64,000 nucleotides of DNA, taken from Escherichia coli. GTDB taxonomy: Bacteria > Pseudomonadota > Gammaproteobacteria > Enterobacterales > Enterobacteriaceae. The position numbers and the translations under genes are program-made. Position 1 is the first letter of the stretch. Every line of letters starts with the position of its first letter. Below the pieces are notes generated by a model, which was given only the letters and a program-made list of their open reading frames with translations, ran no database searches and was not told where the DNA came from. Below, one piece after another: positions 4,843-44,249 of this stretch. Location: assembly GCF_030013205.1 (NCBI RefSeq), contig NZ_CP122648.1; one strand, 5' to 3'.

Positions 4843-5652
4843 ATGAATGATTCACTCAAGGCGCAATGCGTTGCCGAGTTTTTAGGCACCGGACTGTTCC
4901 TCTTTTTTGGCATTGGTTGTTTGTGCGCCCTGAAAGTTGCCGGGGCAAGTCTGGGACTGTGGGAAATTTGTATCATTTGGGGGTTAGGGATTTCGCTTGC
5001 TGTTTACCTTACGGCAGGTATTTCCGGCGCTCATCTCAACCCGGCAGTTACCATTGCTCTGTGGCTGTTTGCCTCTTTCCCAGCCCGTAAAGTGCTGCCA
5101 TTTTGTGTGGCGCAATTAGCGGGTGCCTTTGGTGGTGCGGTTCTGGCATATTCTCTATACAGCAATTTGTTTATCGATTTTGAATCTGCTCACAATATGG
5201 TGCGTGGTAGTGCAGAAAGTTTACAACTCGCCAGTATCTTCAGTACTTATCCTGCAGCGGCGATTAATGTATGGCAAGCTGCGTTGGTCGAAGTGGTCAT
5301 AACGTCCATGTTAATGGGGTTGATTATGGCGTTGACCGATGACGGTAATGGCGTACCCAAAGGACCGCTTGCGCCTTTACTTATTGGTATTCTGGTTGCT
5401 GTTATTGGTGCTTCTACCGGACCATTAACCGGTTTTGCCATGAATCCAGCGCGTGATTTTGGACCTAAAATTTTCACCTGGCTTGCGGGTTGGGGGGAAA
5501 TTGCGATGACTGGTGGACGCAATATTCCTTATTTCATTGTACCCATTATTGCACCGATCATTGGGGCATGTGTTGGTGCGGCGATTTATCGCTATCTCAT
5601 TGCAAAGAATTTACCTGTCAATAGTGTAACGCCTAAAGAAATTAGCGAATAA
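4843..5652 (+). CDS. pduF: propanediol diffusion facilitator (MIP/aquaporin family)
   Basis: ORF 4804-5652; likely start at internal ATG 4843 (MNDSLKAQC...) preceded by AAGAAGG; NPA-type channel motifs. Confidence 0.85.
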   Translation: MNDSLKAQCVAEFLGTGLFLFFGIGCLCALKVAGASLGLWEICIIWGLGISLAVYLTAGISGAHLNPAVTIALWLFASFPARKVLPFCVAQLAGAFGGAVLAYSLYSNLFIDFESAHNMVRGSAESLQLASIFSTYPAAAINVWQAALVEVVITSMLMGLIMALTDDGNGVPKGPLAPLLIGILVAVIGASTGPLTGFAMNPARDFGPKIFTWLAGWGEIAMTGGRNIPYFIVPIIAPIIGACVGAAIYRYLIAKNLPVNSVTPKEISE

Positions 5653-5854
5653 CGAAATAATCTGGCAGTTATAAACGTTTATTTTTTTACTGTTTGTGAT
5701 CTGCTTTCCGAACTTATTAAAAAGTCTCCCGCTTCACGGAGGCTTTTGTTATTGTCCTTTGTGCTTCTCGTGAGTAAATCATCAGGGATGATGTGAAGAT
5801 TAAATGTAAAACAATTGTTTTGCTATAACAATAAATTAACTGGGAGGTTTTATC

Positions 5855-6769
5855 ATGATTTCTGCGGCGACACTTAATTCAGAACTCATTAATAAAATCG
5901 CGCAGGATTTTGCGCAGGCGACCAGCCTTGCGGTTGTCGTGGTCAATATTCACGGCGATGAAATTTCCGAGCTGTTTAACTTCACTCCATTTTGTCAGAT
6001 GATGCGGCAACACCCTCAGCTAAGCACTCGATGTCGCATGAGCGATCGTTGTGGGGGCCTGGAAGCCTCTAAATCCGATCAGCCTTGTATTTATCGCTGT
6101 CATGCCGGATTAACCGATTTCTCTATTCCACTGGTAATCGCCGGGCATTTAGTCGGTTTTGTATTGTGCGGGCAAGTTCGTCTGCGTAATGATGATGTCG
6201 ATTTGGTCGATATTCTGAATGTCGATGATTGCTGGCAGGCAGATCCCGAATTACTTAATGAATTCCGCAAAGTTCCTGAGATGGATTACTCAAGAGTTAT
6301 GGCCTCTGCTGATTTGTTGAAGTTGATTGTGGAAAATTGCCTCAAAAAACAACTCAATTTTGTGGTTATTAAAGAGAACAAATCTCAGTCAGATTCGGTG
6401 CGCCAGACTCGTGCGCCTAATCCCCACGACAATAAAATGAAAAAAGCTTTACGCTATATTGATGCGCATTTATCAGACGATTTGCGTCTGGAAGATGTCG
6501 CCTCGCACGTTTATCTAAGTCCTTATTATTTCAGTAAGTTATTCAAGAAATACCATGGAATCGGTTTTAATGCGTGGGTAAACCAACAACGGATGGCCAG
6601 CGCTCGTGAGTTACTGTGCCATAGTGACTGGAGCATCGCCAGCATTGCGCGTAATTTAGGTTTTTCGCAAACCAGTTATTTTTGCAAAGTTTTCCGTCAA
6701 ACTTATCAGGTTACGCCGCAGGTGTATCGACAGCAAGTGAGTGAAAATGCGGCGATGGAAACGGTATAG
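5855..6769 (+). CDS. pocR: AraC-family regulator of pdu/cob regulon
   Basis: 304 aa ORF with C-terminal AraC HTH, positioned between pduF and the cob leader as in Salmonella. Confidence 0.85.
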   Translation: MISAATLNSELINKIAQDFAQATSLAVVVVNIHGDEISELFNFTPFCQMMRQHPQLSTRCRMSDRCGGLEASKSDQPCIYRCHAGLTDFSIPLVIAGHLVGFVLCGQVRLRNDDVDLVDILNVDDCWQADPELLNEFRKVPEMDYSRVMASADLLKLIVENCLKKQLNFVVIKENKSQSDSVRQTRAPNPHDNKMKKALRYIDAHLSDDLRLEDVASHVYLSPYYFSKLFKKYHGIGFNAWVNQQRMASARELLCHSDWSIASIARNLGFSQTSYFCKVFRQTYQVTPQVYRQQVSENAAMETV

Positions 6770-6869
6770 AGTAAATGCTAAAAAAAGGGAAGGTTTAAAT
6801 AAACGCTGGAATGAATAATTAACGTTATTTACGTGTTATGGGAAAAGTGAAATCAGCTCATAACATACG

Positions 6870-7035
6870 CTGACAGGTGTGGCACATTTGTGCCTGGGAA
6901 GAGGGTGAAAATCCCTCGCAGCCCCCGCTGCTGTAATGCTGACAAACCCGAAAATACCACTGATCGCGAGATTGGGAAGGTCGGGGGAGGATGACGCTAA
7001 GCCAGAAGACCAGCCTGTCAGTCAATACCAACAAC
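6870..7035 (+). promoter_or_regulatory. cobalamin (B12) riboswitch, cob operon leader
   Basis: Conserved riboswitch blocks read directly: gtgcctgggaag...gggtgaaaatccc...gcagcccccgctgctgtaa...B12 box gccagaagaccagcctg. Confidence 0.6.
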
Positions 7036-8366: not shown

Positions 8367-9106
8367 GTAAATTATTTTGGGCGATGCTCTCTTTTATTAC
8401 GCGTCTGCCTGTGCCGCGTCGCTGGTCCCAGGGACTGGATTTCGAGCATTATTCTCGCGGTATTATTACTTTTCCTTTAATTGGATTATTGCTTGGCGCG
8501 ATTAGCGGGCTGGTCTTCATGGTGCTGCAGGCATGGTGTGGCGTACCACTGGCGGCACTGTTTAGCGTACTTGTGCTGGCGCTTATGACCGGGGGATTCC
8601 ACCTGGACGGCCTCGCCGATACTTGTGATGGCGTATTTTCTGCACGTAGCCGCGATCGCATGTTGGAAATCATGCGTGATAGCCGTTTAGGTACCCACGG
8701 CGGTCTGGCATTGATTTTTGTTGTACTGGCAAAGATTTTGGTGTTAAGCGAGTTGGCTTTGCGTGGCGAACCGATCCTTGCATCGCTGGCGGCAGCATGC
8801 GCGGTCAGCCGCGGGACTGCCGCATTATTGATGTATCGTCATCGTTATGCCCGGGAAGAAGGGCTTGGCAATGTGTTCATTGGCAAAATTGATGGGCGAC
8901 AAACCTGCGTCACACTCGGTTTAGCCGCTATTTTTGCTGCTGTATTATTGCCAGGTATGCATGGTGTGGCTGCTATGGTGGTGACGATGGTGGCGATTTT
9001 CATCCTCGGTCAGCTTCTCAAACGTACGCTGGGCGGGCAAACCGGCGATACGCTGGGAGCAGCCATAGAGCTTGGTGAACTGGTCTTCCTGCTGGCACTG
9101 CTATAA
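8363..9106 (+). CDS. cobS: cobalamin 5'-phosphate synthase
   Basis: Start ATG overlaps cobU stop (ATGA); [16 protein letters not shown]..., polytopic membrane protein. Confidence 0.9.
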
Positions 9107-15481: not shown

Positions 15482-15557
15482 TCCTCTGTAGTTCAGTCGG
15501 TAGAACGGCGGACTGTTAATCCGTATGTCACTGGTTCGAGTCCAGTCAGAGGAGCCA
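15482..15557 (+). tRNA. asnW: tRNA-Asn (GUU); integration site of the island that follows
   Basis: tcctctgtagttcagtcggtagaacggcggactgttaatccgtatgtcactggttcgagtccagtcagaggagcca. Confidence 0.9.
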
Positions 15558-15718
15558 AATTCAAGTTTTCATGCTTATCTGTACGTCTCTATTTGTTTAC
15601 GATTCAGTAAGTTAGCGTGAAAATCCTTCCCGGTGCGTATCTGGTTTTCTCTCTGTATCGGGATAATTTGGTGGTCAGATCTGGGGTCAGTTTGGTTCGA
15701 TTCTGGAGTGACCCCCAA

Positions 15719-16980
15719 ATGTCTTTAAACGATTCTAAAATCCGCAAGTTAAAACCCTCTTCCCGTCCGGTAAAACTCTCCGACTCTCACGGTCTGTATC
15801 TGCTCGTCAATCCGGGCGGTTCACGCATCTGGTATCTCAAATATCGTTTCAACGGAAAAGAATCCAGAGTCAGTCTTGGCGCATACCCGCTTGTCTCACT
15901 GGCAGAAGCCAGGCAACAGCGCGACGGTATCCGTAAGTTACTGGCGCAGAATATCAACCCGGCGCAGCAGCGCATGGCGGAGAAAGCGGCCTGCTCCCCT
16001 GAAAAGTGCTTTAAGGCAGTGGCGCTGGCCTGGCACAAAACCAACAAAAAATGGTCGGCTGATTATGCCGCCCGTATTCTCGCCAGTATGGAAAACCATA
16101 TCTTCCCGGCGATTGGTCATCTGCCAGTTGCCACTCTTAAAACGCAGGATTTACTGCTTTGTTGCGGGTTATCGAGGATAAAGGCTTTCTGGAAGTCGCG
16201 TCCCGAACCCGGCAGCAACTCAGCAACATCATGCGCTATGCCGTTCAGCAGGGGCTTACCGAAAGCAATCCGGCGCAGCATCTGGATGGCGTTGTCGCCT
16301 CACCCGTAAAGAATCACTACCCCGCGTTACTGCTGGAGCGGTTGCCCGAACTGCTTGGCCGCATCGGTGACTATCAGCAGGGCCGGGAGTTAACACGGCT
16401 GGCGGTGGTGCTGACGTTGCACCTGTTTATCCGTTCCAGCGAACTGCGTTTCGCCCGCTGGAGCGAGATCGATTTCAGGCACAAAATCTGGACCATCCCC
16501 GCCACCCGCGAGGCAATCGACAAAGTACGGTTTTCGGGGCGTGGCGCAAAAATACGTACCCCGCATATCGTGCCGCTCTCCCGCCAGGCGATTGCCATTC
16601 TGAAACAGATACAGGAGCTTTCCGGCCATCTGGATCTGGTGTTTCCCGGTGATCATAACCCGTACAAGCCAATGAGTGAAAACACCACCAACCGGGCGCT
16701 ACGCCTGATGGGGTATGATACGAAAACTGAAATCTGCGGGCATGGACTCAGGGCGATGGCCTGTAGCGCCCTGGTGGAGTCGGAGCTGTGGTCACGCGAT
16801 ACGGTGGAGCGGCAAATGAGCCACCAGGAGCGTAACAGCGTGCGGGCAGCCTATGTGCATAAAGCGGAGCATCTGGAGGCCAGAAAGGCCATGATGCAGT
16901 GGTGGTCGGATTATCTGGATGTGTGCCGCGAGGGGTATGTTGCGCCGTACATTTATGCCCGGCAGCATAAGGCAGCCTGA
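15719..16980 (+). pseudogene. P4-type tyrosine integrase, frameshifted
   Basis: Two overlapping ORFs in different frames (15617-16309, 16159-16980) that together span one integrase (MSLNDSKIRKLKP... / ...RHHGLQ-like catalytic C-terminus); frame breaks near 16155-16165. Confidence 0.8.
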
Positions 16981-17119
16981 ATCAGAAATAACGGAAATCA
17001 TTAAAAATGTAAAAGCAGATCCTGATTGACCGGGATCTGCTTATTGTATTGAGAAGTATTACCATTTTTCTGTTATTATCAATCGGAAAGTATCTAAAAA
17101 TATTTGGCCCCAAATAATT

Positions 17120-17560
17120 TTGGTGAAAACCAATCAATAAACCATTTATCAATAGGTAAGTACCGGAAATTATTCCAGTAGAATATTTTCAGGCGATTGC
17201 CTATTAATAAATACATTATTGATAGATAAGTGCCTTCTGTGATTTGTCCGCAAATCACAGAAGATGAAAACCTATCAATACGGGATATTTTCACGGAAAT
17301 ACCAATTAATACTCCAGAATATCTCCTGACCATATACTCTGAAACCTGTAAGAACTGCATCAGATATTGAGAGACCATATAGATATAAGTCTGAAATTAT
17401 TTTGTTTCCAATGATTTCAGGCGAAAACCTATCAATGCATCTGTTTTCAATAGGCAGCCACCTTCCGTGATTAACATGTTAATCACGGAAGGTGAAAAGC
17501 TATCAATAATCGATATTTTCACGGAATTACCACTTAATACATCCCAAAAAATGCGCCATA
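17120..17560. repeat. two tandem ~220 bp units, each with a long palindrome, in AT-rich non-coding DNA
   Basis: Palindromes cttctgtgatttgtccgcaaatcacagaag (~17234-17263) and ccttccgtgattaacatgttaatcacggaagg (~17457-17488), each followed by gaaaa(c/g)ctatcaata...gatattttcacggaa. Confidence 0.5.
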
Positions 17561-18317
17561 AAATACCGGGCAATCTTTCCTGATACACATTATCACTGCA
17601 CCAGCTATACAGAGACAAAATAATCTGCACCAGCCCCTGTAAATCGGTTATTTGTGCCAGTGTCCCGCCGCTCTACCTGTTCAGGGTTGTGCCAGTTTCT
17701 GGCCCTTTGGTTTTCGGCCCTTTCCGGTCAGGCGCTGTTACCCTTATTGCCCCTTAACCTTTATGACCCTTTCCCTTTCTGACGCAACCAGTTTATTTTG
17801 AAATGCTCCATGACAGTCTGCACCAGACTGTATTTTCACCACAGGATAACGATCACAAAGTGCAAAAAAATAACATGAAGCACCAAAGATTGTTAATCTA
17901 TATGTAGCAGGTAATGATGTCAAAAACTGTCGCAGCATTTTTTATAAAATTATGAGACATTCTGTGGGCATATAATATATGTCACAAGATGCAGGAAAAC
18001 AAAGAGAGAGTTTTCAGATATAATCCTGCGTTAGAATTAATGTGATGCCCCGGTGAATTTACATTTTAAAATTTCCCTGTCCCGTAATATCGGTAAAAAC
18101 GATTGAAACACCAGCTATTAATCGGGAACGTCTCGAGTGATTACAGGGTAATCACTATAATATCCCGGCAAACTATATTGGTTAAGCAGGAGAATCTGAT
18201 CAGTTGATATTTATTCGTCATGCTGTAACGATATTTTCACAATATAAACCCGTTCGCCCCCTGCGCCAGATCCGGTACAGAGGGTACGATAAATCGCTGT
18301 CGTTACGCAGTAACGTA

Positions 18318-18935
18318 CTATTTTGCGACATTCATGAATTCAGTCATTCCTCCCTCCAGCGGTAGCCGTACACCTGTTTCACCCAGCGACCGCGACCGTC
18401 GCCATGACCCAGATCCGTCGCCGTCAGCGCCAGTGACTCCTTTTCGCTGAATCCCTGCGCCAGTATCCAGGACTGTCGTATAACGGGGACGCCCGCCTTT
18501 GGTGCCAAATACCACTTTTAGCCGGGTTTCACCGCGGGAAATGGCTTTCAGCCACGTTTTCAGCGACTGTGAACTCTGTACCGCCTCCTGCGAACGCAGC
18601 CCCATCAGCCGCGCAATCTCCAGCGCTGCTGCCAGCCCTGCGTCCTGAGTACGGGCTTTCTCCATCACCTGCCTGCGTCCAGCCTGTCTCAGCACGGCCC
18701 GCAACGCTGCCATTTCGTTTTGCAACGTTCGTAAACCAATATCCAGCTCCAGCCGTTCCTCAATGTAGCATTCGATATGGCGAACCTTGATCTGCTCCAC
18801 CCGCTGGATCTGGATATTCAGCGCCCGTAAATGTTCACTGAACCGTTTTGTAATATGGATACGGTCATTCACCGTTTTGAAGCTGCCGCCCGCTTTCTTC
18901 GCCAGCGCCTTCATTTCACTGCTTAATTTACTCAT
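18318..18935 (-). pseudogene. integrase-domain (Integrase_1-like) protein, apparently truncated
   Basis: N-terminal 160 aa (MSKLSSEMKALAKKAGGSFKTV...VVFGTKGGRPR) resemble island-associated integrase-domain proteins, then the sequence degenerates to low complexity and stops early. Confidence 0.45.
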
Positions 18936-19851
18936 GAATCCCTCTGCAACAAAAACAAACAGTCTCCGGCGTGTGCTTTTTGGCTGCGCCAGAACGATAC
19001 CTTTACGCCGGAGTGGTAGTTTGTTGAGGTTTAGGGAGTTTCAGGCTGTACGCAGTACAGACTGCCTGCGAAGCAGGAGTGTCTCCGGGGCTTCTTGCCC
19101 CCCTCGGTATCGATCTTTTTCTCCTTTACTCTTAGCTGACAGCGGCCCCAAAGGGCATGTCAGACGGCGGAAATATGGCGCAGGCCAGAACTGGCGCGGC
19201 TTGTGGCGGTAAGTTGTGCGGCGTCACTTTGCTTTTTCGCTGGCGCGACCAAAGTGACGCCTCGTCTGGTGCAGGGGGTAAACGTTACGTTTCTGGTGCA
19301 GGGTGACGGTCACGCGGCAGCAAAGCCTGACGGCAATGCAGGCCGCAGCCCGTCAATGTAAGGCGCTGGTTGTCAGCAGAAGATAAAACCCGGCAAAGCC
19401 AGAGTGTCAGCCCGTAAAGCCGGGTATCTGGTGCAGTGATGGTGTATATGTACGTCAGTCTCAGATGCAGGTATTTTTGCATCCCCGGCGTTTTCAGAGA
19501 TCAACGCCGGTAAAGGATGCCATGCTGGCGAAGCCAGGCGCTTCTTTCAGACGTGAAGCGACAAAGGGACTGCCCGGAGGCAGTTTGTTGCAGGCGGGAG
19601 ACTGCGCCATTATTTCTGGTGCAGGAAGGAAAAACTGTTTCCGGGTTTAAAAGATTGTTTGCTTACCTGGTGACGGAAAAACTGCCGCGCTTCGCTTGTC
19701 TTCTCCCGGCGCGCTGCCAGCAAAAGCAGGCAGCGCGCCGGGAGAGTCTGGTTTTACTGTAACAATGCGCCTGACGGTTCAGCCATCAGGATCGGCGTTT
19801 ATGCATGAGTCTTCCGGTACGGTTGCCCCGATCATCGATGTATCTGGACGG

Positions 19852-20040
19852 TCAGATAATTTCCGGTGATGTTTCCAGCGCATCCGCAATCAGTTTTTCG
19901 CCGCGCGGCCTGGAGCGGGTCAGCGCATTTGCCAGCGTGGAAGACGCCAGCCCGGCCCTGCGGGAAACCTCAGCCAGCGATGTTCCCTTTTTTCTCAGGC
20001 CCGCGATAATATCGGCGGGGTGCCAGTCGGGTTGCATCAT
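19852..20040 (-). pseudogene. Ner/Nlp-like HTH DNA-binding protein, shortened by an in-frame TGA
   Basis: MMQPDWHPADIIAGLRKKGTSLAEVSRRAGLASSTLANALTR... matches the Ner-like family; ends ...SPEII-TGA-PSRY where the family has IWPSRY (TGG to TGA). Confidence 0.55.
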
Positions 20041-20498
20041 GCTGGCCTCCCGTCGATAACCTGTATGCCGTCAGCAGTACATATCCAGCGTGGGGCGTTC
20101 AGATTGGCGGCAAAATACCAGACCAGTTCGCACAGCAGCCCGGTCAGCGTGGTTTCGGTTTCCGGCAGCAGCACGTGGCCGTTCAGTATCTGCGTCAGCG
20201 CCAGGCAGTAATCGCAGAGTGATCCTGCATCAGGCTCAAAACCGGGTGAAACATCGGGAAGATCATTCGTAATAAACCCGTCAATCAGATGTGGTGGGAT
20301 CGGCTCGTTCAGCGTGGGCCGCAACAGTGCAAGACAGGTATTAAGCCTGCCACAGAGCGCCGTTTTCAGCGCCGGATCGCAGCACTCGATGAGCGTTGTG
20401 GCAACGCGATCGCAGTACTCCGCCAGATCGGTGAAATCGGTAGCGGCACTAAAGGGAACAGCAAGTAAATTGCATTCAGAGGTGAGAGTAGTCGCCAT
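20037..20498 (-). CDS. hypothetical protein, cotranscribed with the Ner-like gene
   Basis: 153 aa ORF whose stop overlaps the start of the downstream Ner-like ORF by 4 bp; no family assignable. Confidence 0.4.
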   Translation of the reverse strand: MATTLTSECNLLAVPFSAATDFTDLAEYCDRVATTLIECCDPALKTALCGRLNTCLALLRPTLNEPIPPHLIDGFITNDLPDVSPGFEPDAGSLCDYCLALTQILNGHVLLPETETTLTGLLCELVWYFAANLNAPRWICTADGIQVIDGRPA

Positions 20499-21019
20499 AA
20501 GGCCGTCTACAGTGAGTGATAAATATTCCAGCCACTGGAGAGGCTAATCTCACGGGTGGTGGAACCGGACGGGGTTAGCCTTACCAGCCTCACTGACACT
20601 GGCGCGTCTTTCGACGCCCCCGCCCGATCCCGCCATTGAGATGAGACCGTGCGCGACACACAAATATTGTATCGTCAGTGAGGATCTTCAGGAGGCTAAT
20701 CCCGACGCCTGATTTTGCAGGCGCGGCGCAACAATACAATGTTCGGTAATTTTCAGCAAGAGGTTTAGCGGAAGCAGACGCACAGGAAAATACAATCACG
20801 CGATAAATATTAAATACAATTATATTTATATAAAATATATATTGAGCAATATGCAGACACTTTCCAGTAAATATCCTGTCAGTTAATTCGTCCCGTTGAT
20901 ATCAGTCAAAAAAATAAATGTAAAAAGAGCGTATTTCGTTTCATACAGTAACGTTATTTATCATTTTGTCCGGTGTCGCCAGCATCAGGCCAGATGAACC
21001 ATAAAAAAGGATATCAGCG

Positions 21020-44196: not shown

Positions 44197-44249
44197 TGGC
44201 GGCAGAGCAGTCACGGAGTAAAACTGATACCGCCAAACGTCACCAGAAA
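44197..44249 (-). ncRNA. dicF: DicF small RNA
   Basis: Reverse complement reads tttctggtgacgtttggcggtatcagttttactccgtgactgctctgccgcc, just upstream of dicB. Confidence 0.7.

Follow-up and report, generated by a model that had tools for sequence, protein, structure and literature searches.

On the minus strand of a 64,000-nt stretch of Escherichia coli DNA, here called the window, two overlapping open reading frames of 153 and 62 codons lie side by side, the second of which, a small Ner-like regulator, ends with a TGA at a place where its family carries tryptophan. We asked whether this TGA is a genuine mutation, a tolerated end of the gene, a stop codon that is read through or an error in the sequence, and to what kind of unit the two genes belong. 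The answer that we consider highly probable is that the TGA is a genuine, recent and lineage-specific nonsense mutation (TGG to TGA, a G-to-A change at Trp63) in a degenerating island at a tRNA-Asn gene, and that the module is an RNA-immunity unit of the P4/P1 type.

The stop codon at Trp63 of the Ner-like gene

The features of the two genes were as follows.

20037..20498, minus strand: orf153, 153 aa, of an uncharacterised family found across Enterobacterales (ORF list; homologue search); its stop overlaps the start of the helix-turn-helix (HTH) gene in ATGA, 20037–20040
19852..20040, minus strand: truncated Ner-like HTH_35 ORF of 62 aa, also carrying W44R at a conserved position (ORF list, Pfam, alignments)
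19852..19854, minus strand: premature stop TGA, ancestral TGG (Trp63), next base C (alignment A1; allele in 49 of 5426 genomes)
19786..19851, minus strand: orphaned remainder, past the TGA, of the HTH gene that ancestrally encoded 84 aa, comprising codons 64–84 and the original stop (translation; alignment with intact 84-aa homologues in PCN033, O145, CUVET19 and Salmonella)

The Ner/Nlp-like family membership proposed in a first-pass annotation was upheld by Pfam, where the 62-aa ORF scored 83 bits on HTH_35 (PF13693; 1.5e-23, profile positions 1–58 of 75, gathering cut-off 25), by sub-cut-off similarity to the NCBIfam SfsB model, and by the relatives of solved structure, Mu Ner (1NEQ, 1.3e-22) and EnrR (7F9H, 1.3e-19). 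The gene is not sfsB itself: even the restored 84-aa sequence reached 110 bits on the SfsB equivalog model (NF007670) against a cut-off of 150, and the chromosomal sfsB is a separate locus with 68% DNA identity.

That annotation had also read the ORF as ending SPEII-TGA with PSRY in the next codons, as is seen at 19852–19854, and had suspected a tryptophan codon turned into a stop, which agrees with the TGG of the nearest relatives (alignments A1 and A5). Past the TGA the frame translates as PSRYIDDRGNRTGRLMHKRRS before a second stop at 19786–19788. With W restored in place of the stop, the HTH_35 score rose by 23 bits to 106 and the match lengthened to profile positions 1–70, so that the codons 3′ of the stop, unlike chance sequence, still bear the family signal. 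Codon 63 is TGG in PCN033 (locus 99.4% identical), TUM9757 and CUVET19-1704, TTG in DSM 103263 and TGT in O145 RM9872 (alignment A1), and encodes W in other genera; the full-length gene has 255 nt (84 aa) in PCN033, O145 and CUVET19-1704. Since codon 63 encodes C in the otherwise intact O145 allele, Trp63 may be dispensable in that sub-lineage.

Of 5426 complete E. coli genomes, 49 contain an identical copy of the 61-mer with the TGA and 18 contain its TGG version. The TGA-bearing assemblies are independent and come from pigs, cattle, humans and wastewater, with the allele confined to near-identical sequences.

When a natural C-terminus at the position of the stop was sought among the intact relatives, none was found to end there. 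These proteins have 68, 73 or 84 aa, contain IWPSRY in every case and extend 5 to 21 residues past the W, the shortest terminating ...WPSRYR. In the family alignment P64, R66 and Y67 are invariant and W63 and S65 nearly so, whereas the 62-aa ORF ends ...EII and lacks the conserved C-terminal I-W-P-S-R-Y, with WPSRY encoded only past the TGA. These observations, and the confidently ordered state of the lost segment in an AlphaFold2 model (residues 59–67, block pLDDT 85–92; residues 71–84 disordered), make it unlikely that the 62-aa product still works as a short form with a tolerated or natural C-terminus and represses its targets, perhaps with a changed specificity or in a dominant-negative way. 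The allele moreover has arginine at position 44, where all other aligned family members keep W or Y. What speaks for a short form is that the 83-bit HTH_35 score is retained, that the allele persists in 49 genomes, and that in the model all four main helices survive in the 62-aa form, the helix-turn-helix among them, so that it could on that prediction keep some DNA binding. RefSeq lists the ORF as an ordinary CDS, which also fits such a form.

The tRNA-Asn island and its lesions

The two genes lie in a 10.5-kb island at tRNA-Asn in the E. coli chromosome (15542–26041), with the following further features.

15482..15561, plus strand: tRNA-Asn (Rfam tRNA match 15482–15554) and attL, the 20-bp direct repeat CCAGTCAGAGGAGCCAAATT at 15542–15561
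15719..16980, plus strand: frameshifted pseudogene of a P4-type tyrosine integrase (so annotated by RefSeq at the K_EC180 locus, which is 100% identical and where locus coordinate + 7599 = window coordinate)
17818..19624: seven TCTGGYGCAG motifs from a motif scan, those at 17818, 18261 and 18984 in minus orientation and those at 19265, 19292, 19427 and 19615 in plus orientation
18344..18935, minus strand: second recombinase pseudogene, Phage_int_SAM_2 (PF12834, 1.3e-40) and Integrase_1 (PF12835, 1.2e-28), annotated as frameshifted
18991..19118, minus strand: EFASI RNA motif (Rfam RF02957, 100.8 bits; gathering score 51.2), directly adjoining the integrase-like gene on its 5′ side
19702..19745, no strand assigned: GC-rich 20-bp hairpin 3′ of the HTH gene, a possible bidirectional terminator (inverted repeat I3, 95% complementary; terminator-like match)
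21020..25129, plus strand: PAAR-Rhs toxin gene, cut by a TGA at 25010–25012 (ancestral TGG), with the ancestral stop TAG at 25127–25129 (ORFs, alignment)
25186..25746, plus strand: TPR/Sel1-repeat gene 3′ of the Rhs tip (Pfam TPR and Sel1, RefSeq annotation), a presumed immunity gene by its position
26022..26041, plus strand: attR, direct repeat of the tRNA-Asn 3′ end and the same 20-mer as attL

The TCTGGYGCAG motifs, seven against 0.26 expected, lie to either side of the EFASI RNA and integrase-like gene, and the 64-kb window holds no copies outside 17818..19624. An EFASI RNA is found at the same position in six related loci, and related inverted motifs flank the EFASI/integrase-like genes in Klebsiella and Hafnia. 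Because the GC-rich hairpin, of which Hafnia and Salmonella have a homologue, follows the HTH gene, the EFASI RNA and the integrase-like gene probably form a separate transcription unit. Tandem Repeats Finder detected nothing in the AT-rich stretch at 16.9–18.4 kb.

Besides its frameshift, the second recombinase has internal deletions of about 186 bp and 91 bp when compared with the related loci L003 and L002. The Shine-Dalgarno (SD) sequence of orf153 reads GTAG (T at 20509) versus GGAG in the other 13 aligned loci, a change common to the window and PCN033 only, by which the SD appears to be weakened in the window lineage. Sister lineages have acquired lesions of their own, with HTH frameshifts in TUM9757 and DSM 103263 and an orf153 frameshift in PCN033. 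Since it is accompanied by W44R, the SD change, broken integrases and these sister-strain frameshifts, the TGA in the HTH gene is best read as ordinary gene decay, apparently one of several inactivating lesions in a degenerating island, a context that the first-pass annotation had missed.

The same annotation had pointed to a second in-frame TGA at the Rhs tip with sense codons after it, and rightly so: the TGA at 25010–25012 is followed by 38 sense codons up to the TAG, and again represents TGG to TGA (alignment A2), the position being TGG in strains 1190, XJ6.1 and D9. In strain 1190 the Rhs CDS reaches the TAG; XJ6.1 and D9 have internal stops or frameshifts in Rhs. The 61-mer with the Rhs TGA occurs in 18 of the 91 genomes carrying this tip, all 18 from swine, and since it is identical in these genomes the Rhs stop is not an assembly error.

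A leaky or programmed read-through, in which the near-cognate tRNA-Trp would insert the ancestral residue, wild-type protein would to some extent be produced at full length and the TGA would attenuate expression without being a knockout, is in our estimate improbable, somewhat more so than a functional short form. Its stop context is TGA-C, which in the form of UGA-C Poole, Brown and Tate are said to have found in 1995 to be the weakest termination signal of E. coli; among natural suppressors of UGA, tRNA-Trp is the classic example. The 21 codons past the TGA and the original stop are also intact, but as the allele occurs only among near-identical sequences this is uninformative with regard to selection. 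Against read-through, the TGA is not conserved, with TGG, TGT or TTG in diverged relatives and W in other genera, and other inactivating lesions lie in the same operon and island. A sequencing or assembly error, the true base being G, has nothing in its favour except its a priori possibility and we count it as refuted, because the TGA 61-mer of the HTH gene recurs in 49 independently assembled complete genomes, as does that of Rhs in 18.

Antisense RNA elements upstream of orf153

The sequence 5′ of orf153 contains these elements.

20731..20759, minus strand: promoter-like TTGCTG-N17-TATTGT, whose end is some 7 nt ahead of the 5′ end of the isrK-like element (sequence reading, conservation)
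20662..20737, minus strand: isrK-like/c4-a1b1 leader element with a1, TTAGCCT, at 20693–20699 and b1, CCTCACTGAC, at 20674–20683 (Rfam, complementarity, covariation)
20552..20640, minus strand: C4/CI-type antisense RNA gene (full-length match 1–87 to Rfam RF01695, 62.2 bits; gathering score 45)
20541..20547, minus strand: a2, TTAGCCT, target for the single-stranded a′ element of C4 (complementarity)
20507..20516, minus strand: b2 target, CTCACTG at 20510–20516, abutting the orf153 SD (complementarity)

The C4 gene scores 71–86 bits in related loci. The leader element is slightly below threshold in the window (isrK 45.5 bits, gathering 50; c4-a1b1 43.8 bits, gathering 46.7) and above it in relatives. 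The loops of C4 have exact complements of 7–10 nt at a1/b1 and at a2/b2 in the window, the latter sites lying just 5′ of the orf153 start. A strict sigma-70 consensus scan did not find the promoter upstream of the isrK-like element, so its assignment is tentative and draws on its conservation in relatives as TTGC..N17..TATCTT.

Covariation was assessed in 14 loci from eight genera, gathered by exact-protein look-ups. The a′–a2 and b′–b2 pairings taken together were 95.8% paired, with compensatory changes on both sides in 10 of 16 pairs, and a1–a′ with b1–b′ were 96.4% paired, 11 of the 14 pairs having changed on both sides. Slid pairings used as controls gave 24–47%, and no shuffle out of 500 reached the observed covariation score. 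The 14 loci hold at least five a types and at least seven b types.

The order isrK, C4, orf153, HTH_35 was found in E. coli, Dickeya, Klebsiella, Hafnia and one IMG/VR contig. Usually an EFASI RNA and a recombinase of the Integrase_1 type come next after this cassette, between TCTGGYGCAG motifs, and the cargo beside it varies: PAAR-Rhs or T6SS genes, DarTG with type I restriction-modification, AbiE, reverse transcriptase or NERD helicase. The C4 region is annotated in relatives as an ORF for an 'ash family protein', and PF10554 matches its translation in P4 and in locus L003. The 4-bp overlap of the two ORFs, described earlier in the first-pass annotation, is the shared ATGA at 20037–20040; the same junction is present in nine of nine two-gene loci examined in the above genera and contig, which strengthens the case for translational coupling of orf153 and the HTH gene. 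A total of 196 homologues of orf153 were found, all hypothetical and devoid of Pfam domains, and searches of Pfam, PHROG, NCBIfam and PADLOC for a function gave no match; the fold predicted with AlphaFold2 (pLDDT 83) is a four-helix bundle with a C-terminal beta hairpin.

As judged from these elements, the two-gene module appears to be the coding part of a unit controlled by C4 antisense RNA, which the first-pass annotation had overlooked. By analogy with c4-icd-ant of P1 and seqA-CI-seqC of P4, we picture a unit transcribed on the minus strand that would run from the promoter through the isrK-like leader (a1, b1), C4, a2/b2, the SD with orf153 and ATGA to the Ner-like gene. The leader would be processed and C4 excised, whereupon the exposed elements a′ (AGGCUAA) and b′ (CAGUGAG) of C4 could pair with a2 and b2 on the same type of transcript. 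Such pairing would mask the ribosome-binding site of orf153, and through ATGA coupling and polarity the Ner-like regulator should also be silenced. Once the block is lifted, orf153, positioned as kil in P4 and icd in P1, would be produced, followed by the Ner-like DNA-binding protein, which may either repress in the manner of Cro and Ner or, like EnrR, counteract the silencing of AT-rich DNA in the island.

In the window strain this unit seems to be in the course of being lost, with its integrases broken, the orf153 SD weakened, the Rhs tip changed from TGG to TGA, and the HTH protein probably impaired first by W44R and then by loss of the conserved, ordered WPSRY segment and the basic tail. 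In the other 13 aligned loci b2 extends into the GGAG found 8–9 nt before the ATG; in the window, where b′–b2 pairing amounts to only 7 nt and stops short of the mutated SD, antisense control may already fail. An inner terminator hairpin, located between b1 and C4 in other loci, is absent from the window and from O145.

Relation to known immunity systems and wider meaning

Equivalence of isrK with seqA, and of C4 with CI RNA, has been described (PMC3632133, PMC4825925). As in the immunity region of P4, which runs from P_LE through seqA (isrK-like), CI RNA (C4) and seqC to kil, an isrK-like element, C4 and a first translated ORF about 55 nt downstream follow each other on one strand, and the first P4 ORF, of 65 aa, begins MATTLTPSHPEF where orf153 begins MATTLTSEC, MATTLT being common to both. 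The island integrase is also P4-type and at a tRNA gene, and in both systems the RNA gene lies beneath an ORF annotated as 'Ash/cI protein'. Past the first few codons, however, the regulated genes are unrelated, being in P4 the 65-aa ORF, epsilon, ORF151 and alpha, and in the island a 153-aa helical protein and a Ner-like HTH protein. ORF151 of P4, similar to orf153 in size and position, showed no similarity when the orf153 family was analysed with hhalign, and with the P4 'cI ORF' only the first 19 residues aligned. The P4-like core genes alpha (primase-helicase), epsilon, sid, delta and psu were not found among the annotated features of the island. That the island is a P4 satellite or other phage was rejected, because an IMG/VR scan gave one orf153 locus and tblastn against 50,697 phage records only one 1.5-kb fragment record.

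In the immI region of P1/P7 (c4-icd-ant), an operon is repressed by an antisense RNA cut from its own leader, as the Rfam descriptions also state, and the unit found here would work likewise. It resembles immI in having a pair of short recognition elements, both with one copy upstream (a1/b1) and one downstream (a2/b2), in the position of b2, which in the other 13 aligned loci reaches the ribosome-binding site of the first ORF, in the overlap of that ORF's end with the start of the second gene, and in having distinct specificities through co-variation of loops and targets. It differs in that it lies in a chromosomal island and not in a plasmid prophage, with neither Icd nor Ant downstream: orf153 lacks Pfam, PHROG or NCBIfam matches, albeit placed in the slot that we take to be that of P4 kil and P1 icd, and the second gene encodes an HTH_35 protein. 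In isrK-orf45-anrP of Salmonella Gifsy-1, an isrK-type leader RNA likewise governs translation of the first ORF and thereby a downstream regulator (PMC4825925), although the downstream genes are others and the host element is a lambdoid prophage, not a tRNA island. The architecture is that of P4/P1 RNA immunity, with other genes placed behind it.

The HTH protein belongs to the same sequence family (HTH_35) as Mu Ner, SfsB/Nlp of E. coli and EnrR of Edwardsiella, of which EnrR, too, is the product of a genomic island; it regulates its own gene, binds to AT-rich DNA and works against H-NS at genes of the T3SS and T6SS (PMC9023278). Unlike EnrR it lacks the N-terminal extension, its residue 4 aligning to EnrR residue 17, and unlike the family in general the window protein is cut before the conserved WPSRY.

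Taken alone the truncation is of minor interest: it is a textbook nonsense mutation and a sign that an immobilised island is decaying. The proper annotation of the ORF is that of a pseudogene, not of a 62-aa 'helix-turn-helix protein'. Calls of 'Ash family protein' beside the module are translations of the C4/CI RNA gene, and a widespread, unnamed 153-aa family occupies the P4 kil/P1 icd position under predicted antisense-RNA control. More speculatively, and with odds that we would place well below even, the isrK-like/C4/orf153/Ner-like cassette might be the control backbone of an undescribed class of non-phage, tRNA-integrating enterobacterial islands with swappable cargo, in which a borrowed P4-type RNA immunity gates orf153 and an EnrR-like regulator. 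If so, that regulator would activate the AT-rich cargo or recombination of the island, co-resident islands would be hetero-immune owing to the many a/b specificities that co-vary, and the TGA allele would be a natural loss-of-switch mutant. The same backbone accompanies diverse defence and T6SS-effector cargo in several enterobacterial genera, and natural TGG/TGA allele pairs, such as strain 1190 or PCN033 versus K_EC180, offer ready material for studies of the role of the Ner-like protein in the island.

The premature stop in the HTH_35 gene

As stated in the first-pass annotation, the reading frame of 153 aa (orf153, 20037–20498) and that of 62 aa (19852–20040), both on the minus strand, overlap by the 4 bases ATGA, and the Ner-like identity proposed for the shorter one was borne out by a Pfam HTH_35 match (1.5e-23) with Mu Ner and EnrR as PDB relatives. 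The 62-aa frame ends with SPEII followed by TGA and continues beyond as PSRYIDDRGNRTGRLMHKRRS to a further stop; with a Trp codon in place of the TGA, the Pfam score was 106 bits instead of 83, and the match reached profile position 70 instead of 58. That a Trp codon had become a stop was also evident from DNA alignment, since five related E. coli loci carry TGG (three), TTG (one) or TGT (one) at this position, with TGA found only in the window. The intact gene encodes 84 aa in PCN033, O145 RM9872, CUVET19-1704 and a Salmonella island, 73 aa in Dickeya, Klebsiella, Hafnia and Enterobacter, and 68 aa in E. coli A13. In the AlphaFold2 model of the Ner-like protein, helices (residues 8–17, 22–28, 33–41 and 45–54) are followed by short turns (59–62 and 64–67) and a disordered basic tail (71–84), and the truncation spares the helix-turn-helix while taking away W63 to Y67 plus the tail.

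Leaky read-through of the UGA-C by tRNATrp would restore the wild-type protein and probably occurs at some low level. There is, however, no sign of selection for it, the stop codon not being conserved among related loci and the TGA allele being so young that the intact codons beyond it carry no information. It is unlikely that the 62-aa product instead ends at a natural C-terminus, because IWPSRY precedes the end of every intact 84-, 73- and 68-aa homologue, so that in the family comparison the natural C-terminus was never at the TGA position. A read error is excluded by the recurrence of the 61-mer centred on this TGA, which 49 of 5426 complete genomes carry unchanged (a further 18 have the TGG form, making up the 67 genomes with a locus identity of at least 99%), and of the 61-mer around a second TGA, in the Rhs toxin gene, in 18 of the 91 genomes carrying the toxin tip, all 18 from swine. 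The TGA is therefore real.

Decay of the island

The 1.1 kb around the HTH TGA is 100% identical to many E. coli chromosomes, such as swine K_EC180, in the record of which the locus is placed between yeeO/tRNA-Asn and yeeN. The 3' end of tRNA-Asn (CCAGTCAGAGGAGCCAAATT) at 15542–15561 has a second copy at 26022–26041, and this repeat at both ends delimits an island of 10.5 kb.

Island content, in order
P4-type integrase gene, frameshifted (first)
AT-rich stretch
Second recombinase gene, frameshifted (PF12834 and PF12835)
orf153 and the HTH gene
PAAR-Rhs toxin gene
TPR/Sel1 gene (last)

Between both integrase genes, in a stretch of 33% G+C, lies a 131-nt direct repeat (17182–17312 and 17410–17540; 73% identity, 228 nt between copies) with an internal imperfect palindrome of 41 nt. 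The window has four tRNA-Asn-like copies (11253, 13661, 15482 and 37845) and Rfam matches to DicF RNA (44197–44248, minus strand, 73 bits), which implies a Qin/Kim-type prophage remnant nearby, to STnc230 (5711–5794, minus strand) and to a cobalamin riboswitch 5' of cob genes (6858–7032, plus strand).

The second in-frame TGA pointed out in the Rhs tip (25010–25012) is indeed TGG in strains 1190, XJ6.1 and D9, the intact coding sequence ending with TAG at 25127–25129. Because XJ6.1 has TGA at the HTH codon yet TGG in the Rhs tip, and because the Rhs-TGA genomes are all from swine, the Rhs mutation looks like a later one that probably arose inside the HTH-TGA group. The intact Rhs coding sequence is 4182 nt long (1190 and XJ6.1) and the span from start to ancestral stop in the window 4110 nt (21020–25129), an additional difference of about 72 nt somewhere internal. 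The toxin tip (about 140 aa) gave no Pfam match.

The HTH TGA is one of many lesions, and the event is ordinary pseudogenisation. In the window lineage the P4-type int is frameshifted, two deletions (about 186 bp and about 91 bp) have shortened the second recombinase gene, a W44R change in the HTH protein affects a position held by W or Y in all other aligned family members, and the Shine-Dalgarno sequence of orf153 reads GTAG, a change common to PCN033 only, versus GGAG in the other 13 aligned loci. Sister lineages inactivated the same genes by different lesions, with the HTH gene broken by one-base deletions in TUM9757 and DSM 103263 and truncated also in a thrW island and an IMG/VR contig, orf153 frameshifted in PCN033, and Rhs having internal stops or frameshifts in XJ6.1 and D9. 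As TGG to TGA is among the few single transitions that give a stop, two such changes in a decaying island are unremarkable.

A predicted antisense RNA control region

Elements upstream of orf153
20552–20640, minus strand: C4 antisense RNA (Rfam 62.2 bits, gathering score 45), 54 nt upstream of the orf153 start
20662–20737, minus strand: isrK-like (c4-a1b1) element, Rfam scores slightly below threshold in the window
20674–20683: b1, upstream complement of a C4 element
20693–20699: a1, upstream complement of a C4 element
20541–20547: a2, downstream complement of a C4 element
20510–20516: b2, downstream complement, immediately preceding the orf153 ribosome-binding site

The order isrK, C4, orf153 and HTH_35 was found in ten related loci (from E. 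coli, Dickeya, Klebsiella and Hafnia, plus one viral contig), with the RNA elements above threshold. Exact complements to both the loop of the C4 hairpin (GUCAGUGAGG) and the single-stranded AGGCUAA beside it occur at two places, and over 14 loci from eight genera these a and b elements vary in concert, falling into five types for a (GGCUAA/UUAGCC, GUUCCAA/UUGGAAC and AGACCAA/UUGGUCU among them) and seven for b. Pairing of the exposed C4 elements a' and b' with a2 and b2 reached 95.8% over the 14 loci, both sides being changed in 10 of 16 pairs, and pairing with a1 and b1 reached 96.4% (both sides changed in 11 of 14); sliding the partners by 1–3 columns gave only 24–47%, and none of 500 shuffles attained the observed covariation score. 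An inner GACGCG...CGCGTC-T7 terminator hairpin lies between b1 and C4 in other loci and is missing from the window (20640–20680), O145 and Salmonella alleles, in which the short isrK-like transcript may run on past this point.

The control region follows the logic of P1/P7 c4-icd-ant and of P4 immunity, and isrK and C4 have been equated with P4 seqA and the P4 CI RNA, respectively (PMC3632133, PMC4825925). In P4 (X51522), isrK (8615–8692) and C4 (8420–8507) are followed by an ORF of 65 aa. It begins MATTLTPSHPEF, as compared with MATTLTSEC in orf153, with complete divergence beyond the start. This ORF is kil, which is under immunity control and is the first gene of the left operon to be translated; the position of orf153 is that of P4 kil and P1 icd, and a functional parallel may be conjectured by analogy. 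The 'ash family protein' ORFs beside orf153 in relatives are the C4 RNA region translated, as is the old 'cI protein' ORF of P4. The orf153 family comprises at least 196 clusters over Enterobacterales, all annotated as hypothetical and none having a Pfam domain, and is essentially absent from phage genomes; AlphaFold2 modelled the protein confidently as a bundle of four helices with a hairpin at the C-terminus, and fold searches were uninformative.

EnrR, the nearest characterised island-borne relative of the Ner-like protein, controls its own expression, binds AT-rich DNA and counters H-NS at T3SS and T6SS genes (PMC9023278), and has an N-terminal extension missing from the window protein. 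With the Rhs tip and immunity region at 33–40% G+C, counter-silencing is a conceivable role for the Ner-like protein by analogy with EnrR.

Recombinase neighbourhood and shared backbone

Elements around the second recombinase (Integrase_1-type) gene
18991–19118, minus strand: EFASI RNA (Rfam RF02957; 94–119 bits across the window, O145 RM9872 (L002), CUVET19-1704 (L003), L004, Klebsiella (L015, L016) and Hafnia (L017))
17818, 18261 and 18984, minus strand: TCTGGYGCAG copies
19265, 19292, 19427 and 19615, plus strand: TCTGGYGCAG copies

EFASI RNA lies 3' of the HTH gene in 6 of the 10 related loci, with the Integrase_1-type gene next in loci with genes listed; it was detected in all scanned related loci possessing that gene, 50–190 nt upstream of its start in the window, L003, L015 and L017. 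The seven TCTGGYGCAG copies in the 64-kb window (0.26 expected), all within 17818–19624, converge on the EFASI RNA and the Integrase_1-type gene, a segment enclosed by a 25-nt inverted repeat (17583–17607 and 19425–19449), and in Klebsiella (L015) and Hafnia (L017) related inverted CTGC[AG]CCAGA / TCTGG[TC]GCAG pairs border the homologous genes. These motifs and repeats may be sites of recombinase binding or of inversion. With the tRNA and P4-type int as reference, the block from isrK to Integrase_1 is reversed in Hafnia (L017), as compared with the window, Klebsiella (L016) and Dickeya (L013), owing either to an ability of the block to invert or to a different assembly of the islands. A HigA-family antitoxin gene lies between the HTH gene and EFASI in O145 and CUVET19 (5241–5899 in both loci) whose place in the window (19378–19682) and the Salmonella island (L022) is occupied by about 300 bp of unrelated sequence.

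One backbone carries diverse cargo (L005, L013, L015/L016, L017, L002, L003 and L022), including a 1070-aa reverse transcriptase with AbiE, DarTG with type I RM, AbiE with TacAT and DUF4747, a NERD/UvrD-type protein of 1615 aa, T6SS tssF/G/vgrG and Rhs toxins. The initial finding is accurate and its interpretation right; the present analysis adds the recognition of a region for control by antisense RNA, in which three-way covariation is strong, of the 'Ash' ORF as mis-annotated, and of a conserved uncharacterised backbone common to islands that differ in their T6SS and defence cargo and look like a hotspot for defence or effector genes.
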